64,000 bases of DNA from a phage. The position numbers and the translations under genes were made by a program. Under the pieces are notes generated by a model, which was not told the origin of the DNA, did not search any database, and saw only the letters and a list, made by a program, of their open reading frames with translations. The stretch lies in assembly GCA_020619395.1 (NCBI GenBank), contig GCA_020619395.1_4860.1; one strand, written 5' to 3'. Positions within the stretch are counted from its first letter, which is position 1; each line of letters begins with the position of its first letter. Below, in pieces: positions 10,443 to 60,935 of this stretch.

Positions 10443-10468
10443 ACAAAAAAAGAAAAAGAAATAAGGTT

Positions 10469-10492
10469 TACCTCTCCCTTCGGGGAGAGGTA
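10469..10492. terminator. bidirectional rho-independent terminator
   Basis: Hairpin tacctctccc-ttcg-gggagaggta flanked by an A-run upstream and a T-run downstream, between convergent genes. Confidence 0.7.
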
Positions 10493-10505
10493 CCTTTTCT
10501 TTTTT

Positions 10506-10808
10506 TTAATCTTCTGTAGCAGCTTTAGGTTTATTAACCAATTCGTCGAGCATGATACCAATCGCCAGAGGGTCGTTCTGGAAAGGTTCTAGCTTTTCCA
10601 ATACCTTTGTATCCTTTGCTGCTTTTAACGCCTTCAGGAGGCCTTTACGGGCGTTATAGAAGATTTGCCAGCGACGTCCATGACTGATCGCAGTTTTGGC
10701 TTTGTGGAAGTCGGCTAAGAAAGCTTCAGTCGCTTTGTTTTCAGGTAACTCAAAGCGAAAACGCACACTACGCTCAAAATCCATATTGACAACAATGAAC
10801 TTTACCAT
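10506..10808 (-). CDS. hypothetical small protein (100 aa)
   Basis: ORF between terminator and next small gene. Confidence 0.45.
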   Translation of the reverse strand: MVKFIVVNMDFERSVRFRFELPENKATEAFLADFHKAKTAISHGRRWQIFYNARKGLLKALKAAKDTKVLEKLEPFQNDPLAIGIMLDELVNKPKAATED

Positions 10809-16511: not shown

Positions 16512-16538
16512 CCTAAGATAATATCTATCTATAAAATT
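16512..16538 (-). promoter_or_regulatory. conserved AT-rich promoter-like motif (copy D)
   Basis: tccctaagataatatctatctataaaat, about 37 nt upstream of ATG 16475 and just downstream of the terminator of the preceding operon. Confidence 0.5.
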
Positions 16539-16555
16539 TTAGAAAAAAAGAAAAA

Positions 16556-16579
16556 GCTTACTCCCCGAAGGGAGTAAGC
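16556..16579 (-). terminator. rho-independent terminator
   Basis: gcttactccc-cgaa-gggagtaagc hairpin with flanking A/T runs after the stop of 16611..18911. Confidence 0.7.
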
Positions 16580-16610
16580 TAATCTTAGGCAACGTAATCC
16601 TTACGGATTA

Positions 16611-21051: not shown

Positions 21052-21157
21052 TACGGGCAGTTTATGCGTCCTGCCAAGATCAAAAAAAATACGACGAACT
21101 ATTTATATGCATGGAATTACCCGAGTGCTGGAACACTCGGGTAAGAGTTATTTCATG

Positions 21158-21304
21158 TTAACTTTTGTTTAGTAGTATTTCACCTCCTAAACCCTTGATA
21201 CGACGAACAGTGTTCTGCTTGGGCGCAGTCAACTGTTGTACACGTTGGTTGAATTGGGTTTGCTTAACGTAATGGTTAAGTATTTGCGAACGTAGTTGTT
21301 CCAT
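21158..21304 (-). CDS. small protein, IKGLGG-motif paralog 1 (48 aa)
   Basis: MEQLRSQILNHYVKQTQFNQRVQQLTAPKQNTVRRIKGLGGEILLNKS; GGAGG ribosome-binding site 6 nt upstream; own terminator hairpin (21120-21141); paralog of the next gene. Confidence 0.55.
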   Translation of the reverse strand: MEQLRSQILNHYVKQTQFNQRVQQLTAPKQNTVRRIKGLGGEILLNKS

Positions 21305-21416
21305 GTAGTGCCTCCTTAGGCAGGTTGTTAATATATCGCTGCGCTGTGGTGGTACACAATGCACCGATATACTGTCACGGGAGTTAAAAGGGGTGCTCGA
21401 ACACCCCTGGTTAGTG

Positions 21417-21563
21417 TTACTTCTTATTGAAGATGATGTCACCTCCTAGTCCTTTAATGGTACGGGTGGAAGTCTGCGTTGGGCGGCTAACCTCTTGCAG
21501 ACGTTGTTGAAAAGCGACTTGTTTCAGCTGTTGCTGACGCAGTTGTTGCATAAAGGTATTCAT
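21417..21563 (-). CDS. small protein, IKGLGG-motif paralog 2 (48 aa)
   Basis: MNTFMQQLRQQQLKQVAFQQRLQEVSRPTQTSTRTIKGLGGDIIFNKK; below the 60-aa track cutoff; GAGG ribosome-binding site; own terminator (21390-21407). Confidence 0.55.
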   Translation of the reverse strand: MNTFMQQLRQQQLKQVAFQQRLQEVSRPTQTSTRTIKGLGGDIIFNKK

Positions 21564-21676
21564 GTTAACCTCTAAGTGGATGTGAATAAGCTCTCTCCTT
21601 CGGGAGAGAGCGCCTTTTATTTTCTTTTCGGAAAATAAATATAAAACCCTCTTACCCGAAGGTAAGAGGGGTACTA

Positions 21677-22537
21677 CTACGGTTTATAATCAACTTCGTT
21701 GATCTTGCCGCAAGCCGGACAAGCAATGTTCATTGTCTGCGAAGTATAGCGATGGGTTCTCGGTACTGTAGCGACATGGTTGCGGTTACAGCCGGAACAC
21801 GTCCAGCCAACCACTGGTGCCTTCGATTGTTTCTGGGCAGGTGTGTCTTCTTTTAACAATGCGACTACCGCGTGAAATTTACGAAGCTCTGCGTTAACAT
21901 GCGCTTCCCAGTCGGCGTCCAAACGCGCCGTGAACCAACGTTGAATCTTCTGGCCAAGTCCGTCTTGATTTTCTTCTTCATGGGACATCACAAACTTGAG
22001 ATTTGCACGACCCCATTGCACGACGTTCTCTACTTTAATCCCGTCTACGGTGTCGCTGATTGGCGTATAGTTAAAAGTTGGATAGGTGAGATAACAAGCT
22101 TCAGCTGTTGCAAAGACAGTATTGCCTTCAAACAGTGCCATGGCCTCATCGCCCTTAGCATCCTTCTGTGCGGCTTCCAATCGTGGGCAATGGAAACCTT
22201 CAAGTTGCTGGATTTTGGTCGTTAGCGCATTGATACCCTGTAGCACGGCAATGCGCTTTTTGCTGTCTGTGATCGTCGCCATTACCTTGCACAACGCGCG
22301 CGAGATAGCGCTATACATTGACGTTTTGCGGTTTTCATCGAGGAAACGCTCTTGCTGCTCCAGGTCGTAAGAAGACAGGCCGTAGCTCTGCCCTTCGACC
22401 AACACGACATAAGTACGACGTTTGTCGCGGTCCAGCTGGACAATGGCCGCATCGGTTAACGGATCGCTAGCCAATACTTCGTGGTTGGGAGGTAGGGGGA
22501 AATCCGAACTTTTGATAAAATCAGTAATGCTGTACAT
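21677..22537 (-). CDS. hypothetical protein with C-terminal zinc-ribbon-like Cys pairs
   Basis: AAGGAC ribosome-binding site; C-terminus contains CSGC...(19 aa)...CPAC. Confidence 0.5.
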   Translation of the reverse strand: MYSITDFIKSSDFPLPPNHEVLASDPLTDAAIVQLDRDKRRTYVVLVEGQSYGLSSYDLEQQERFLDENRKTSMYSAISRALCKVMATITDSKKRIAVLQGINALTTKIQQLEGFHCPRLEAAQKDAKGDEAMALFEGNTVFATAEACYLTYPTFNYTPISDTVDGIKVENVVQWGRANLKFVMSHEEENQDGLGQKIQRWFTARLDADWEAHVNAELRKFHAVVALLKEDTPAQKQSKAPVVGWTCSGCNRNHVATVPRTHRYTSQTMNIACPACGKINEVDYKP

Positions 22538-22540
22538 TTT

Positions 22541-22963
22541 TTAGTCCTTAAGAGAGTTAATAAAGTCATCTAAACTAATATCACGGAATGGGAAGTAAAC
22601 ACCTTCAAGCGGAATCGTGTAGTGTTCACTAATGGCACGTTGCCAATCCAGAACAGTTGCAGGGTAGTTCACAACCTCAAAGTTAGGATGCGTGATTGGC
22701 GGAATTGCGTTGTAAACATAGCCGTTAATATTTTTCGATGGGAACGCTGCACGGAACTTCGGCTCCATGTAGAACATTTCTTCTTTTACTTCCTGGCCTT
22801 CCCAGAAACGATAGCCACCCTTACCGTCAGGAATATAAATCGCCTTGTCACGGGGTATAGGGGAATCCTTGGATAGCGGAACAAATCGCCCGTACTGGTC
22901 AAGAACCATCCAGTCAGTGTCATTCTTTAAATACTTTTGGAGCTTCTCATTAATCATTTTCAT
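22541..22963 (-). CDS. hypothetical protein
   Basis: Start set at internal ATG 22963, which has an AAGGAA ribosome-binding site; the track ORF start at 23038 would run through the terminator hairpin 22982-23003. Confidence 0.45.
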   Translation of the reverse strand: MKMINEKLQKYLKNDTDWMVLDQYGRFVPLSKDSPIPRDKAIYIPDGKGGYRFWEGQEVKEEMFYMEPKFRAAFPSKNINGYVYNAIPPITHPNFEVVNYPATVLDWQRAISEHYTIPLEGVYFPFRDISLDDFINSLKD

Positions 22964-23015
22964 GTTCCTTAGGCAAAAAATAATACCACCCGTAGGTGGT
23001 ATTAAATTATCTATA

Positions 23016-23204
23016 CTACTTCTTCCCGAGTTCCCCACGGAACTTCGCCAGCTCTTCTTTCCAGTCCGGCTTCGGTAGTGCGCTTTTCGGCCCCACGATA
23101 AACGTACGTTCTGAGGTTTGCGGATTCACCTCTACTGTTTCGTTATCTTCCACTTCGCGAAGCACGATTCCGTTTTTACCATCGTAATTAACTAAAACGC
23201 CCAT
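23016..23204 (-). CDS. hypothetical small protein (62 aa)
   Basis: AGGAG ribosome-binding site upstream of ATG 23204. Confidence 0.45.
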   Translation of the reverse strand: MGVLVNYDGKNGIVLREVEDNETVEVNPQTSERTFIVGPKSALPKPDWKEELAKFRGELGKK

Positions 23205-23386
23205 TAGTAAATCTCCTGCTGCATTGGAAACACATTACCTGTCGGTGAGACGAGTAAGACTTGCGCGGTAACGTGAACAATTTCTTCTTCGTCCTGATGA
23301 CGAACACCGTTAGTGAGATTATCCCACTCACGTTTAACACGAGGGTGAGATAAGAACTCGGCAAACTGCGTATCAGAAAAGTCCAT
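23204..23386 (-). CDS. hypothetical small protein (60 aa)
   Basis: ATG at 23386 overlaps the stop of the upstream small ORF in a TAATG arrangement; track ORF uses a GTG at 23404. Confidence 0.4.
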   Translation of the reverse strand: MDFSDTQFAEFLSHPRVKREWDNLTNGVRHQDEEEIVHVTAQVLLVSPTGNVFPMQQEIY

Positions 23387-23529
23387 TAGCCGCGACCTGT
23401 ACACATGGCAACAGAGTTACCGTTATCGATGCACTTGTTGTAATCTTGAGTTACAGTGATAGACAGTACCGCGAAAGCAACAACAGCAACGATTGCGAAG
23501 ATGGCACGTTTATGGTTACGAGTTAACAT
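23386..23529 (-). CDS. small single-pass membrane peptide (47 aa)
   Basis: Not in ORF track. MLTRNHKRAIFAIVAVVAFAVLSITVTQDYNKCIDNGNSVAMCTGRG; AAGGAG ribosome-binding site 7 nt upstream; first gene after promoter-like motif A. Confidence 0.4.
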   Translation of the reverse strand: MLTRNHKRAIFAIVAVVAFAVLSITVTQDYNKCIDNGNSVAMCTGRG

Positions 23530-23580
23530 GGTAATACTCCTTTAGCTTAATAGTCGATTGAGTTGATAGATTGTCTTCTA

Positions 23581-23606
23581 TCACCTAGGTAATATATATC
23601 TGAAAT
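23581..23606 (-). promoter_or_regulatory. conserved AT-rich promoter-like motif (copy A)
   Basis: tcacctaggtaatatatatctgaaat; identical 26-mer also at 32085-32110; about 52 nt upstream of ATG 23529. Confidence 0.55.
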
Positions 23607-23636
23607 TATTTTTATTCAGAGTACACCCTCTATAAC

Positions 23637-23727
23637 GCTCTCAAACGCGTTTTGAGAGCTTTTATCACTTTAGAGGGTCGTTCTACCGTTAGAGTGGCTT
23701 TAGAAGGTTGTGTGTGCGTTTAGAGGG
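23637..23727. repeat. intergenic array: 9-bp inverted repeat plus four helically phased direct repeats TTAGAG(G/A/T)G
   Basis: Palindrome gctctcaaa-cgcgt-tttgagagc (23637-23659); direct copies at 23669, 23689, 23699, 23719 (spacing 20/10/20 bp). Confidence 0.5.
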
Positions 23728-23741
23728 CTAAAATAAAGAGA

Positions 23742-23764
23742 CCTGGTCTCACAAGGAGACCAGG
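23742..23764 (-). terminator. rho-independent terminator
   Basis: cctggtctc-acaag-gagaccagg hairpin after the stop of 23772..24569, T-rich tail on minus strand. Confidence 0.6.
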
Positions 23765-23771
23765 CACACTT

Positions 23772-24569
23772 TTACATCAAATCCAGGCTCTGAGAGACCG
23801 CAACTTCCGGTTCACTGATGCCGCTGGTCACTGACAATGTAAAGCGACGATCGTTAATCACTTCAACTGCCTCGCTCGCACGCAGTGAATACTTATCGGC
23901 GATTGGCAGTACACTGTTATCGTTCTGTGGCGGCAGAATCTGTGCCGGGAACGGAATGTACGAGTTGAAAGTGATATACGGACCGACTTGCATCATCGGG
24001 AACACTTCGTTCACGTTATTCGACATCCCTTCATCCGAAGAGATAACGGAGTGACGCAGACAGGCACGCAAGCCAACGGTGTACTCCGGATCGCGCGATT
24101 CGCCGATCAGTGCGAAACGGAACACGTTGAAATCGTAGTCGTCTGCAGCGAAGTGTTCTGGCAGGATACGCTGTACGTATTCAGGGTAAGTGGTCACGTC
24201 ACCCGGAATAACATTCACGGCGAGTTTCTGTGCCAGGAAATACGCATTCGCGAAACCGTACTGCCCCGCCAGCGCAGCTGATATCGGTGCAGTGGTTACG
24301 CAGTGCAGGAACAAGTGATAACCCAGCCCGCCTTTATCTTCGATTGCCAGGTCCTTCTTACTCTGCACACCGTCAGCAGTATAAATAACTGCCACTGTTT
24401 TATCCAACGTCGATGCCATGACAAAATCCAACTGCACCTCACCGCTTTGCGGCAGTACCTTAACCAGGCGATCCCAGAGCTTGGTCGGTTTGGTGAAGTT
24501 AGCGGCTTCGTACGCATCAATGTCGAGAACAGTTTGGCCGGTCATGCGAAAGGTGTGAATCGCTTTCAT
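23772..24569 (-). CDS. hypothetical protein (265 aa)
   Basis: ORF, last gene of an operon before the terminator. Confidence 0.55.
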   Translation of the reverse strand: MKAIHTFRMTGQTVLDIDAYEAANFTKPTKLWDRLVKVLPQSGEVQLDFVMASTLDKTVAVIYTADGVQSKKDLAIEDKGGLGYHLFLHCVTTAPISAALAGQYGFANAYFLAQKLAVNVIPGDVTTYPEYVQRILPEHFAADDYDFNVFRFALIGESRDPEYTVGLRACLRHSVISSDEGMSNNVNEVFPMMQVGPYITFNSYIPFPAQILPPQNDNSVLPIADKYSLRASEAVEVINDRRFTLSVTSGISEPEVAVSQSLDLM

Positions 24570-29300: not shown

Positions 29301-29352
29301 TAGCTGTCCCTCGTTGTAGTCATATCACTGGCCTAAAACGCAAAAAAAAAGA

Positions 29353-29372
29353 AAGGGAGCCGAAACTCCCTT
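29353..29372 (-). terminator. rho-independent terminator
   Basis: A-run + aagggag-ccgaaa-ctccctt hairpin after the stop of 29379..29708. Confidence 0.5.
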
Positions 29373-29378
29373 CGTGTT

Positions 29379-29708
29379 TTAGTGGGCCAGCCAAGCTAGC
29401 TGCCACTTCTTACATTTTATTCCGCTGTGTCCAACCGGATTGCGGATAATGTCCATCGTTTTCCCGACAACGAATTCAATCATCTTGTCTGATAGCATTT
29501 TACCCATCGCGATAGAGAGGGCCGTAACCTGATCAGGGTCATCGATGTACGCATAGACCGGCTCATTACTGCCGAAGATAAGATAGAAGGAACCCTCGCA
29601 GGCCACGATTGAGGTCAGTGGCACGATGCACCCGGTATACACTCTCGCCAGTTCAGCCGCTTTTGGGGTTACTTCCATTACGTAACCCTTAACAGATTTC
29701 TTTTCCAC
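29379..29708 (-). CDS. hypothetical protein (109 aa)
   Basis: ORF 1 nt downstream of the dihydrofolate reductase gene. Confidence 0.45.
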   Translation of the reverse strand: MEKKSVKGYVMEVTPKAAELARVYTGCIVPLTSIVACEGSFYLIFGSNEPVYAYIDDPDQVTALSIAMGKMLSDKMIEFVVGKTMDIIRNPVGHSGIKCKKWQLAWLAH

Positions 29709-32110: not shown

Positions 32111-32143
32111 CTTTTCTAATCTGAGACAAAAAAAGAAAGGGTA

Positions 32144-32167
32144 AATCCCCCACCGAAGTGGGGGATT
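32144..32167 (-). terminator. rho-independent terminator
   Basis: aatcccccac-cgaa-gtgggggatt hairpin with A/T-runs after the stop of 32179..33438. Confidence 0.7.
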
Positions 32168-32178
32168 CGCCAGTCTAA

Positions 32179-41737: not shown

Positions 41738-41744
41738 AAAGCAC

Positions 41745-41769
41745 TACCCTCTCCCGAAGGAGAGGGTAG
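41745..41769. terminator. bidirectional rho-independent terminator
   Basis: ctaccctctcc-cgaa-ggagagggtag hairpin with A-run/T-run flanks between convergent genes. Confidence 0.7.
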
Positions 41770-41778
41770 CCTTTTATT

Positions 41779-43512
41779 TTATTCGCCGTCAAGCATGTTT
41801 TTGCGATTATTACCTTTCACCAACGGGTTACGTTTGGCCAGGTTCAGTATCGTCTGCAGTGTAGCGGCAGCACCGCAACAACGACGCACCAACGACAGGT
41901 TACGACGCAAGCCGACGAAGAGGTCTTCATCACCGTCTGGGGAGAATAACACCATCGAGAGTTCACGACCGTCGGTGCGCAGACCAGAAGGTTGATTAAG
42001 CTCGTTCATAATGACTTCGCTAATCAGGTTAACGTATTCAGCGTTATCCTTGGTTGCTTTCTGGAACTGCTCCAACACTTTAATCGTGTTATTAACCGCC
42101 TTATCCAGTGCACTGTAACGGTTCAGGTTAGTCGCGGCGGTGTCGTTGGTAAAACCTTGTTTACCTAGCGTTACCACCACGGCCAGCAGCTCACGTTCGT
42201 CACCAACCGATAACGTGCCCGCTTGGCGCATTTGCTCTAAGCACTCGCGTCCCAAGAACGCCGATGCTTGTGCATTAACCAACACTTTACCAGGCACGAA
42301 GTCCACACCATCGTCATGACCCACTAAACCACGAACTTTGTTTTCTGGGATAACGACCAAAGGTGCAGTAGCGTATTCGAATCCTTTGCGGGAAACGTCG
42401 CTGATGATGAAGTTCATCGTGGTGTTCAGCTGCGCTAACGCCTGACCGAAAATAAGCGCGGTGTCGTGTGCTGCTTTGTTAACTTGCTTACCGTTGTGCG
42501 TGGTGGTTGAACCTTGCTGATTCTTAAAACCTTCGGCGACGCTTGGGTCAATCATCGCTTTAAAGGCACTCTGGAGCGAGCCAAAGTAACCGATAAGTTC
42601 GCTGGCAACATTCGACATCTGTTGGAAGTTCAACAGGTTCGGAATACGCACACCGGCTTCACGCGCAGACTTCGGCAATGCCTGCCAGGCTTTCTTACCC
42701 ACCTCAATCGGATAGATACCGTAAGTTACGTTGTGTTGTAACAGGGTATCTAACAGGTCGTGAATAACCTGCTGGCTCGATTGGCGTTTCTTAGTGTAAC
42801 CTTTGAACAATTCAGTGAACGGCGAACGACCCAGCGCGCTGCTCAAGTCATTCAGATACTCTTCCGCGTTCATGTTCGTAAACACTTCGTCGGCCATCGC
42901 GATAGCCAAGTTCAGGTTTTCCAGGTCACGACCTTTCAGACCCTTAGAGGCTTCGATGTATGCATCTTTCACTGCGCTGATTTTCAGCTGACCGATGATA
43001 GTGTTTTCGGTCTGGGAGAAACTCTCTGCTTTTTCGCCGACTTTCTCAGCGTAACCTTCGCCGTCGAATTCGCCATTACCAGCAAACCCGTTACCGTTGC
43101 TGATAATCCAACCGATGATTTTGATAATCGCGGTCATGATTAACACAACCAATCCCACTTTACCTGCATTTGCCCAGGATTCGAGCGCAACAATAGTCTC
43201 TTTCTGGTGCGTGCGGGTATAGTTAGAGGTCAGGATTTTGCGGACAGCTTCGGGAATTGTGCCTGGGCGAGAAGATTCAACAGCGACAGCGACATCTTTC
43301 GATAGGCCAGCGCGTCGCACCTCATCAAGAATCGCGTCGATTTGCAGAATCAGTCGAGAGCCGTAGATTAAGTCGGCTTCGTTGCGTTGCATGTACAGAT
43401 TGAGCTGGTTGACAGAATCAATACGCTCGGCCATACGTGAACGCAGGACTTCACCGATCTCCCCCAAACGCCATTTGGGGTGGGTGGCGTTACCTGTCAT
43501 TTCCATGCTCAT
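41779..43512 (-). CDS. hypothetical protein (577 aa) with one hydrophobic segment
   Basis: ORF; segment GKVGLVVLIMTAIIKIIGWII is transmembrane-like. Confidence 0.55.
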   Translation of the reverse strand: MSMEMTGNATHPKWRLGEIGEVLRSRMAERIDSVNQLNLYMQRNEADLIYGSRLILQIDAILDEVRRAGLSKDVAVAVESSRPGTIPEAVRKILTSNYTRTHQKETIVALESWANAGKVGLVVLIMTAIIKIIGWIISNGNGFAGNGEFDGEGYAEKVGEKAESFSQTENTIIGQLKISAVKDAYIEASKGLKGRDLENLNLAIAMADEVFTNMNAEEYLNDLSSALGRSPFTELFKGYTKKRQSSQQVIHDLLDTLLQHNVTYGIYPIEVGKKAWQALPKSAREAGVRIPNLLNFQQMSNVASELIGYFGSLQSAFKAMIDPSVAEGFKNQQGSTTTHNGKQVNKAAHDTALIFGQALAQLNTTMNFIISDVSRKGFEYATAPLVVIPENKVRGLVGHDDGVDFVPGKVLVNAQASAFLGRECLEQMRQAGTLSVGDERELLAVVVTLGKQGFTNDTAATNLNRYSALDKAVNNTIKVLEQFQKATKDNAEYVNLISEVIMNELNQPSGLRTDGRELSMVLFSPDGDEDLFVGLRRNLSLVRRCCGAAATLQTILNLAKRNPLVKGNNRKNMLDGE

Positions 43513-47636: not shown

Positions 47637-47653
47637 AACAAAAAAAAGAAAGG

Positions 47654-47678
47654 CCTCTCTACCCTAGGGTAGAGAGGT
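47654..47678. terminator. bidirectional rho-independent terminator
   Basis: cctctctaccc-tag-ggtagagagg hairpin with A-run/T-run flanks between convergent genes. Confidence 0.7.
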
Positions 47679-47686
47679 ACTTTTAT

Positions 47687-48187
47687 TTAACCGCCAAAGG
47701 CGTGCATAACCAGCGAACGCAGGTCCGGGTCGTTCAGGCGACGAGCCAGACGGTCAACATCGTTGGTATCACGGAAACGGCCTTTATCGGCGCAACGTGC
47801 GTAACGAATCAGCATGTTAATAAAGATAACGAAGACTTCACGCTCGTCACGATTCGGGAAGTTCTCACTGATACGGTTATTAGCAGCCGGTGCGTAGAAA
47901 ATACCGTTACGGTGCTTATTAGCCGCTTCTACAAAGGCGTAGAAACCGTCCAGGAAGGCCTGACCGCGCAGTTTAAACAGCTCACGGAAAGAGTGATGCA
48001 GCTTATTATACGCATCTTTCTCAGCCTGGGTACCAGATGCTTTACGTGGGCCGGCATTGTTACCTGCTTCATCGAGCATCGTGGTGATCAGTTTAACACG
48101 ATATTGGTCGTCGTTGCTGTAAGAAGCGCTATCACGGACCACGCCTTCTGTACGCGGGTCAAGGGTAGTAGTGTCTTTCTTAGTCAT
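47687..48187 (-). CDS. hypothetical protein (about 166 aa)
   Basis: Start set to ATG 48187 with AAGGA ribosome-binding site; track start 48262 would overlap the upstream gene by 62 nt. Confidence 0.5.
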   Translation of the reverse strand: MTKKDTTTLDPRTEGVVRDSASYSNDDQYRVKLITTMLDEAGNNAGPRKASGTQAEKDAYNKLHHSFRELFKLRGQAFLDGFYAFVEAANKHRNGIFYAPAANNRISENFPNRDEREVFVIFINMLIRYARCADKGRFRDTNDVDRLARRLNDPDLRSLVMHAFGG

Positions 48188-50367: not shown

Positions 50368-50395
50368 TCATACCAAGGCGAATAAAAAAAGAAAA

Positions 50396-50411
50396 CGGGG
50401 CCGAAGCCCCG
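50396..50411 (-). terminator. rho-independent terminator
   Basis: A-run + cggggc-cgaa-gccccg hairpin downstream of the stop of 50420..50791. Confidence 0.6.
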
Positions 50412-50419
50412 AATTTCTA

Positions 50420-50791
50420 TTAATGTCCCGTCAGATCTTTCTCCAGCTCTTTTAGCGCACGTTCACCTGCCACCTGTTCGCCGGCTTTGGCGATAATCGC
50501 TTTGCGACGACGGATGTTGTCGAGCATCAGGAGTATCTGCCAGCGGGGGCGGTCGAGGAACTCGTCTATCGACATCCGGTAGTTTTCACCGACCTCTTCA
50601 CGTAAGTAAGTGGCGTACCAGATATCGTAAAGACTACCGTATACCGGGTTTTCAAAATCCGACAACCCTACCTGATGGTCGCCGGTATTAAGAGCCAGTG
50701 TACGGTCATACGCTTCCAGAAGCTCGTTATGGGCTTCCTGATACGTAATAGGACGTGTGCTACGCTGCTTGAAGAGAGAGGTGGTATCCAT
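50420..50791 (-). CDS. hypothetical protein (123 aa)
   Basis: ORF but no recognisable ribosome-binding site; frame stays open upstream of the ATG. Confidence 0.35.
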   Translation of the reverse strand: MDTTSLFKQRSTRPITYQEAHNELLEAYDRTLALNTGDHQVGLSDFENPVYGSLYDIWYATYLREEVGENYRMSIDEFLDRPRWQILLMLDNIRRRKAIIAKAGEQVAGERALKELEKDLTGH

Positions 50792-60907: not shown

Positions 60908-60935
60908 CTCGGTAAGATAATATCTATCTGTTTTA
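60908..60935 (-). promoter_or_regulatory. conserved AT-rich promoter-like motif (copy E)
   Basis: tcggtaagataatatctatctgttttat about 24 nt upstream of the beta-fragment start; sits in a divergent intergenic region. Confidence 0.5.

Follow-up and report, generated by a model that had tools for sequence, protein, structure and literature searches.

This work concerns two small genes, which we call A and B, lying side by side on the minus strand at positions 21158-21563 of a 64,000-nucleotide stretch of phage DNA (contig GCA_020619395.1_4860.1 of GenBank assembly GCA_020619395.1), the whole of which is referred to below as the window. Based on sequence comparison, the window comes from an SPN3US-type jumbo Salmonella phage of the genus Seoulvirus, and its segment 20000-24000 aligns over its full length, at 97.8-98.5% identity, to SPN3US, SPLA1a/3/5c and Proteus phage 7. 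An original prediction, made without database searches, had described A and B as paralogous 48-residue proteins with a shared C-terminal motif and no known family. Here we report that A and B are, with very high probability, genuine, selected, accessory paralogous protein genes, and we weigh what their products may do in the infected cell.

The gene pair and its coding potential

Gene A occupies 21417..21563 of the minus strand (ATG at 21563, TAA at 21417; product MNTFMQQLRQQQLKQVAFQQRLQEVSRPTQTSTRTIKGLGGDIIFNKK) and gene B 21158..21304 of the same strand (ATG at 21304, TAA at 21158; product MEQLRSQILNHYVKQTQFNQRVQQLTAPKQNTVRRIKGLGGEILLNKS), both open reading frames (ORFs) being 48 codons long and confirmed where they had been predicted; in the program-made ORF list, gene B is the 3' portion of a 94-residue GTG ORF. 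A ribosome-binding site (RBS) precedes each gene on the minus strand: AGAGG at 21569..21573, 5 nucleotides (nt) ahead of the ATG of A, and TAAGGAGG at 21311..21318, 6 nt ahead of the ATG of B. Each gene is also followed by a GC-rich minus-strand hairpin, located at 21389..21408 after A (GGGGTG-TTCG-AGCACCCC, then TTTT; found by a hairpin/terminator scan and by cross-genus comparison) and at 21117..21144 after B. The expectation that each gene has its own RBS and terminator hairpin was thus correct for the RBS and the hairpin of both, but a T tail stands directly behind the hairpin in A only, the T8 run after B being found ~27 nt downstream of the B hairpin. Judged by their adjacency, common strand, similar proteins and homologous 3' hairpins, A and B are a tandem paralogue pair, and no third diverged copy was found in the window.

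Both genes have counterparts of the same position and orientation in SPN3US, where they are annotated as 48-residue hypothetical proteins. Gene A is the orthologue of gp71 (YP_009153365.1, RefSeq tag ACQ60_gp195; 92% identity) and gene B that of gp72 (YP_009153366.1, RefSeq tag ACQ60_gp194), the identities for the two proteins spanning 92-98%; the original gp numbers follow from the gene order, with the major capsid protein gp75 and the essential gp70 as reference points (PMC5105663). Gene B is nearest to the single-copy gene of Seoulvirus SPAsTU, with a ratio of nonsynonymous to synonymous substitution rates (dN/dS) of 0.35 between them. Both proteins match the hidden Markov model (HMM) of PHROG 18219 along residues 1-48 of its 48 positions (E 1.4e-25 for A and 4.8e-26 for B) and, on this profile match, belong to that family, which is catalogued without a function. 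The statement that no family is recognisable therefore holds for families of known function but not for catalogued ones, the proteins being already annotated as hypothetical in SPN3US and about 40 GenBank records.

Several lines of evidence bear on the reality of the two genes. Proteins A and B are similar over their whole length (51% identity, BLASTP E 3e-14) and both contain exactly the predicted motif P-x-Q-x-x-x-R-x-IKGLGG(E/D)I(L/I)(L/F)NK, while the genes share 54% of their nucleotides in an ungapped alignment, with a proportion of synonymous differences (pS) of 0.78, at which synonymous sites are saturated, and a proportion of nonsynonymous differences (pN) of 0.39. It was on these grounds correct to say that the DNA has diverged while the protein pattern has been kept. 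Additionally, dN/dS is 0.06-0.39 in all informative (unsaturated) orthologue pairs, and invariant residues are encoded by multiple codons across the family: all four glycine codons (GGA, GGT, GGG and GGC) are used for Gly38, and two to three codons each for K37, I43 and K47. The agreement of A/B similarity, PHROG match, excess of pS over pN, low dN/dS and multiple codons for invariant residues is what makes A and B genuine protein genes, and together with syntenic orthologues in three genera it bears out the proposed selection on a real peptide.

Conservation is unevenly spread along the protein. Ten residues (M1, Q20, R21, K37, G38, L39, G40, G41, I43 and K47) are invariant in 16 diverse members, the last 13 residues are the most conserved part, and the N-terminal half evolves faster. 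The claim of conservation at the peptide level stands overall, but has to be qualified in one respect: the codons of the GLGG segment are partly conserved at the nucleotide level too, a point to which we return below.

Distribution, cassette structure and copy number

The family is narrowly distributed. Word-index searches of 5.8 billion proteins returned 47-49-residue proteins on phage contigs of ~240 kb only, the exceptions being a few mis-called ORFs of 65-68 residues in low-quality SPFM assemblies. An exhaustive HMM search of 1.84 billion cluster representatives gave three family clusters at 50% identity and three Gln-rich chance matches, and a search of IMG/VR added four loci from the same clade. 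Profile searching, as had been proposed, did find homologues, but these form no general jumbo-phage family: they are confined to one narrow clade and are patchy within it. The GenBank carriers are the SPN3US group, SPAsTU and pEa_SNUABM_29 in Seoulvirus, Machina, Huxley, Parshik, pEa_SNUABM_6/10/42/43 and pSal-SNUABM-04 in Machinavirus, and pEa_SNUABM_11 in Wellingtonvirus.

Where present, the gene always closes a leftward block and faces the 3' end of a convergent DnaB-like helicase gene, a position in which it occurs as a single copy in the three genera. It is absent, with synteny kept, from Kwan (Wellingtonvirus), Caitlin (Machinavirus), Asesino (Erskinevirus) and CR5 and Phobos (Derbicusvirus), relatives whose helicase genes are 67-87% identical to that of the window; in Caitlin, Asesino, CR5 and Phobos there is no room for it at the locus. 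The alignment of pEa11 with Kwan resolves into a clean insertion or deletion (indel) of ~440 nt that starts just before the 5' hairpin. Because close relatives lack the gene and this indel is clean, the family gene is an optional cassette rather than a core gene of the SPN3US-like or chimallivirus phages, and it is not an obligate partner of the helicase; in particular, the Caitlin and Machina helicases are both 77% identical to that of the window, and Machina carries the family gene while Caitlin does not.

Delimited by the same comparisons, the cassette comprises an RBS and 47-49 codons, with one hairpin on the 5' side and another on the 3' side. The 5' hairpin (GCTCTCTCC-CGAA-GGAGAGAGC; 21590..21611, minus strand) has an A-rich tract ahead of it on the minus strand and lies inside the cassette indel; it is present in all genera, with a stem whose sequence differs in each of them and whose pairing is kept by compensating changes. 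Upstream of single-copy genes and of copy A, the order in all three genera is terminator, AT-rich palindrome, GC-rich hairpin, CACA spacer and RBS. In the window, the terminator is the intrinsic terminator hairpin with T tail of the upstream neighbour, a gp70-like gene (21647..21670, minus strand; hairpin/terminator scan), and the palindrome is the spacer TTATTTTC..GAAAATAA (21612..21646), which separates that terminator from the 5' hairpin and is conserved in the three genera.

The 3' hairpin, too, covaries. In 14 sequences, 88.7% of the cells are paired, compared with 30-38% for slid partners; 8 of the 12 pairs have compensatory changes on both sides and the three apical pairs do not vary. 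Between genera, covariation is seen in the lower stem, and the apex GTGYT-NN-ARCAC is conserved, the two A/B hairpins being its only sites in the 64 kb. In nine whole cassettes, RNAalifold predicted the 5' and 3' hairpins only and left the ORF unpaired. The distance from stop codon to 3' hairpin is variable (8-18 nt). A search of the locus against Rfam gave sub-threshold chance matches only.

Two further observations were made on the 3' hairpin. Its apical 12 nt (21125-21136 and 21393-21404) occur in two orientations, exact reverse complements of each other, in near-identical phages (for example, GTGTTCCAGCAC in the window B copy and GTGCTGGAACAC in SPN3US B, or GTGTTACAGCAC in Parshik and GTGCTGTAACAC in pEa43), the switch amounting to a small loop inversion between the stem arms. 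Also, one non-Watson-Crick position (T.G or C.A) is found in 14 of the 16 copies compared and is never mended to Watson-Crick.

Most genomes have one copy of the gene; two are found only in part of the SPN3US species (the window, SPN3US, the SPLA phages, Proteus phage 7 and MET_P1_082_240). Together with its downstream flank, copy B is similar to the single copy of SPAsTU; on its upstream side, copy A has the flank that is conserved in single-copy genomes. In SEGD1 and phage 1252 the single gene is an in-frame chimera, which runs from the 5' part of A to ...KGLGG and continues with the 3' part of B; SPFM, JN03, SaP7 and EC001 are judged to have the same chimera from an identical tblastn pattern. 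The two parts meet in the 10-nt TAGGAGGTGA, the longest stretch over which genes A and B match exactly. This stretch has a Shine-Dalgarno (SD)-like sequence and is found on the minus strand at 21439..21448 in gene A (codons L39-D42) and, as the partner site of the crossover in the single-copy phages, at 21180..21189 in gene B (codons L39-E42). Homologous or unequal recombination between the copies would yield such chimeras. Additionally, the 3' half of the SEGD1 chimera is a different B allele, resembling the one on a 235-kb Logan contig, so that recombination at this junction has shuffled the alleles more than once. One apparent case of an A-only genome, Escherichia phage vB_EcoM_Lh1B (OK428535.1), was discounted: the letters NNNNN stand exactly at the position of copy B, ~35 nt past the copy-A stop, and its single-copy state is probably an assembly gap.

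Possible modes of action

The two proteins are small, soluble and strongly basic (5.6 kDa, net charge +6, isoelectric point (pI) about 11-12), and so is the family as a whole (5.4-5.7 kDa, pI 10.6-12.0, net charge +5 to +9), whose members are Gln/Asn-rich; Cys and Trp are lacking in A and B and throughout the family. There is no transmembrane segment or signal peptide, the top 15-residue Kyte-Doolittle mean being at most 0.27 and the grand average of hydropathy -0.7 to -1.0; membrane-active classes (holins, spanins, type I toxins) were consequently rejected, as no hydrophobic segment exists. The AlphaFold2 model, built from a 16-sequence alignment, has a mean predicted local distance difference test (pLDDT) score of 68. 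In it, residues 2-25 form a helix (pLDDT about 83-85), the Pro/Arg-rich linker is disordered, and strands at 36-38 and 41-43 make up a small hairpin (pLDDT about 52-54). With low confidence, the model suggests a polar N-terminal helix followed by a Pro/Arg linker and by the invariant C-terminal segment [IVL]-K-G-L-G-G-[DE]-I-[ILV]-[FL]-x-K as a Gly-turn beta-hairpin.

Homology searches for a function were uniformly negative. Against Pfam, the best matches of both proteins and the 16 members had E values of about 0.06-0.09, far under the cut-offs and differing between members; NCBIfam and PADLOC returned nothing for either protein, a profile search of the PDB gave chance matches only (E at least 0.47), and Foldseek found no match to the AlphaFold model in the PDB or BFVD.

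The explanation that we consider best overall, with a probability of roughly 0.4, is that A and B are real paralogues, carried by an optional cassette, whose products act in trans by binding a polyanionic target. Since a stable hairpin lies near each end of the mRNA, the message may be stable and well expressed, and a transcript bracketed in this way would probably give an abundant product. The protein would act in the infected cell as a dispensable accessory factor and not as a component of the virion, binding its target (RNA, DNA or the ribosome) through the basic helix and the GxxG-type glycine loop. A nucleic acid or the ribosome would be the simplest target for a protein of 48 residues that has a net charge of +6, a helix both polar and basic, and a G-x-x-G turn between aliphatic residues; taken by itself, this mode of action is nevertheless doubtful.

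A number of points weigh against this explanation. A high charge alone argues only weakly for binding to nucleic acid, the pLDDT of the C-terminal hairpin is no higher than ~52-54, and, with Pfam, NCBIfam, PADLOC, PDB and Foldseek all empty, no homology bears on the molecular target. The nucleotide-level conservation of the GLGG codons hints at a role at the RNA level for which this explanation does not account. As for expression, a sigma-70 promoter scan of the locus found no site, the AT-rich upstream motif does not recur in the window and so provides no promoter-like repeat, and our search of the literature on gp71/gp72 and on SPN3US transcriptomes or promoters found no relevant publication, transcript or peptide data. 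Finally, the absence of gp71 and gp72 from the virion is an absence of mention (in the SPN3US virion, prohead and essential-gene papers and supplements searched) and not a measured negative, small proteins being easily missed; the neighbouring gp70, in contrast, is listed there as an essential non-virion protein.

The main rival is that the proteins are protein-protein adaptors or inhibitors, serving as accessory host-takeover or counter-defence factors, in which KGLGG(D/E)I(I/L)F would dock by beta-strand addition on a conserved protein of the host (Enterobacterales) or of the phage. Conservation in the family is indeed highest in a short C-terminal stretch predicted as strands, joined to an N-terminal half that changes faster, and the gene shows the patchiness, duplication and mosaicism often seen in accessory genes engaged in arms races; the hosts of related phages span Salmonella, E. 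coli, Erwinia and Proteus. Such a role would not need the very high positive charge, however, and one phage partner at hand, the helicase, is not obligate, as the equally similar Caitlin and Machina proteins illustrate. We know of no bacterial docking motif that the segment matches, its likeness to the clamp-binding QL[SD]LF, the SSB tail DDDIPF and the FtsZ C-terminal peptide being a loose one. Altogether, we regard the adaptor explanation as unlikely.

The codons behind the GLGG segment call for a separate treatment. In 19 genes from three genera, Leu39 is encoded by TTA or CTA in 18, Gly40 by GGA or GGG in all 19 and Gly41 by GGT in 18, a uniformity to be read knowing that synonymous sites are saturated between genera and that the 19 sequences are phylogenetically dependent. 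In the long ORFs of the window, TTA and CTA make up 18% of Leu codons and GGA and GGG 23% of Gly codons; at the other positions of the family genes, 32% of Leu codons are YTA. The resulting UAGGRGGUGA has the strongest predicted duplex with the 16S 3' tail in the locus (-16 kcal/mol), and the plus-strand reading of TAGGAGGTGA, TCACCTCCTA, resembles the 16S rRNA 3' end. The 64-kb window has no further occurrence, on either strand, of the 8-mers GGAGGTGA, AGGAGGTG and AAGGAGGT. The motif is accompanied by no slippery heptamer and followed by no start codon, and RNAalifold found no conserved RNA pairing partner for it in nine cassettes. The motif may mark a site of pausing or of contact with the ribosome, be a by-product, or simply serve as the crossover substrate for A and B.

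Two explanations build on this signal, and both have a small probability. One is a dual-coded, ribosome-directed device, in which the UAGGRGGUGA RNA, or the basic peptide together with the site, would act on the ribosome: the RNA might serve as a 30S-binding or pause site, with the antisense strand mimicking the 16S 3' end, and the outcome might be a programmed pause, the capture of ribosomes or a check on read-through against the convergent helicase gene. What prompts it is a site kept by rare codons in three genera within the best-conserved stretch of the peptide, with the strongest anti-SD complementarity in the 64 kb, in an mRNA predicted to be unpaired between two covarying hairpins. We hold this to be very improbable; if true, it would be a small phage-encoded translation modulator of a new kind. 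The other is that the element acts mainly in cis, as a translated ORF whose conserved C-terminal peptide and internal TAGGRGGTGA cause a pause or arrest that controls formation of the 3' hairpin and antisense read-through into the helicase gene, or sequesters 30S subunits. The rare YTA GGR GGT codons kept in 18-19 of 19 genes, their anti-SD complementarity, the strong conservation of the last 13 residues and a conserved hairpin that begins 8-18 nt past the stop codon would all be accounted for in this way. On the other hand, Q20-R21, the N-terminal half and the constant length are conserved too and dN/dS is low over the whole ORF, the stop-to-hairpin distance varies, and the missing slippery heptamer, start codon and pairing partner count here as well. 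Moreover, the next gene in single-copy genomes is the convergent helicase, and none of them has a same-strand gene downstream, for which reason a cis-regulatory leader or arrest ORF was rejected and the broader cis-acting explanation retains only a slim chance.

The remaining rivals concern the fate of the protein itself. A small basic DNA-associated protein of the virion or internal head, packaged with the genome, would suit the high pI and the location of the A/B locus among many structural genes, with the major capsid protein gene two genes away; neither protein is ever mentioned among virion or head proteins in the three SPN3US mass-spectrometry papers or supplements searched, close relatives with the same capsid module lack the gene, and there is no A-x-E site, so that packaging, too, has little probability. 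The SPN3US prohead protease gp245 cleaves after an AXE motif (PMC10052503), and its substrates were considered as a class for A and B and rejected, given that both lack the motif and go unmentioned among head proteins. Even less probable, and in our estimation close to negligible, is a processed-peptide precursor, cut after Gly-Gly in the manner of a double-glycine leader, of ubiquitin-like proteins or of a prohead-protease substrate, so as to free a 7-residue C-terminal peptide or expose a GG end. The invariant GG followed by a conserved 7-residue tail is what speaks for it, against the absence of a signal or leader consensus, membrane segment and A-x-E site, the alternation of D and E after GG, a 48-residue length with a predicted helix and no beta-grasp fold, and no processing enzyme linked in the locus.

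Neighbouring features and comparison with known systems

The upstream neighbour of gene A is a 286-residue gene on the minus strand (21677-22537) and an orthologue of SPN3US gp70, reported as an essential non-virion protein to which no function has been assigned (SPN3US proteome and essential-gene papers; PMC5105663). The C-terminus of the gp70-like protein has a CxxC...CxxC pattern (WTCSGC...IACPACG) with the look of a zinc ribbon. Further tiny genes are present a few genes upstream in SPN3US (annotated with 47, 60 and 62 residues), corresponding to 22541-24000 on the minus strand of the window.

A recurrent intergenic element was also observed, consisting of an A-rich tract (AAAAAAAGAAA), a GC-rich hairpin with a TTCG, GAAG or CGAA loop and, often, a T-tract. 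A motif scan located it at ~10447-10520, 16545-16590, 29346-29390, 32130-32175, 41740-41785, 47643-47700 and 50386-50420, and these elements are probably uni- or bidirectional terminators of the phage. The AT-rich spacer upstream of the cassette is of the same style as the bidirectional terminator at 41740-41785, and in the plus-strand direction the 5' hairpin with its T-tract looks like a terminator. The idea that the AT-rich motif is a recurring promoter of the phage was rejected, given its lack of recurrence and its resemblance to the A-tract/hairpin/T-tract terminators of the window.

On the other side of the pair, the segment 21057-21100, between the B hairpin and the helicase terminator, is intergenic and yet nearly invariant between Seoulvirus and Machinavirus. 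It is composed of a T8-10 run followed by G-TCT-GGCAGGAC-CATAA-CTGCCC, with a GGCAG/CTGCC inverted repeat, and the TATG core of phiKZ late promoters is part of a TTTATG on its plus strand. Elsewhere in the window, the 19-nt AT-rich motif TAAGATAATATCTATCT(A/G)T is present on the plus strand at 16514-16532 and 60913-60931 (two seen, none expected); it may serve as a phage promoter or another regulatory site, and has no association with the small genes.

In their architecture, and by analogy, the genes resemble an accessory cassette of the 'moron' type, and they belong to no family of known function. Morons are optional genes with their own terminators inserted between conserved genes in lambdoid phages, and the cassette is likewise a self-contained unit with flanking hairpins, a clean indel and variable copy number; in contrast to morons, no promoter was found for it, and its carriers are not temperate phages but virulent jumbo phages with their own RNA polymerases. 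The resemblance to the KH domain is one of a short motif only: the family I-K-G-L-G-G-D-I-I has a G-x-x-G between aliphatic residues in a basic context, comparable to the phosphate-contacting KH loop ([IVL][IVL]G[KR]xGxx[IVL]), whereas a KH domain is about 70 residues long and places its loop between two helices instead of in a modelled hairpin. The KH domain itself was rejected, as there was no KH match at E up to 10 in 16 members and a 48-residue protein is modelled as a helix plus hairpin.

Two other known systems share features with the cassette. The lambda N arginine-rich motif is also a short basic helical peptide encoded beside conserved RNA hairpins, but the family helix has 3-5 basic residues and is Gln-rich rather than Arg-rich, there is no sequence similarity, and binding to the flanking hairpins is not supported. 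The SD-like stimulators of dnaX and prfB and the arrest peptides SecM and TnaC have in common with the family a strong internal SD-like sequence maintained through the choice of codons, a hairpin downstream of it and conservation of the C-terminal peptide; the family differs from them in having no slippery sequence, no in-frame stop at a shift site and no regulated downstream gene, and in its variable hairpin spacing.

Taken at face value, these genes add little, being a conserved ORFan mini-protein of one jumbo-phage clade that has already been annotated as hypothetical. What is new here is the identity of the phage and of the two genes, the narrow and patchy distribution of the family, the boundaries of the cassette, its covarying hairpins, the chimeric collapse of the two copies, the protein profile and the SD signal at the codon level. 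The codon-kept, strong internal SD-like sequence is the signal that the favoured explanation, a trans-acting binder of a polyanionic target, leaves over. The value of the system lies in a well-supported, real 48-residue phage gene for which natural two-copy, chimeric one-copy and zero-copy genomes exist, and as SPN3US is genetically tractable, the effects of gaining and losing the gene are easy to compare. Small, abundant, basic accessory proteins, among which A and B may be counted if the favoured explanation is right, are a poorly explored class in nucleus-forming phages.

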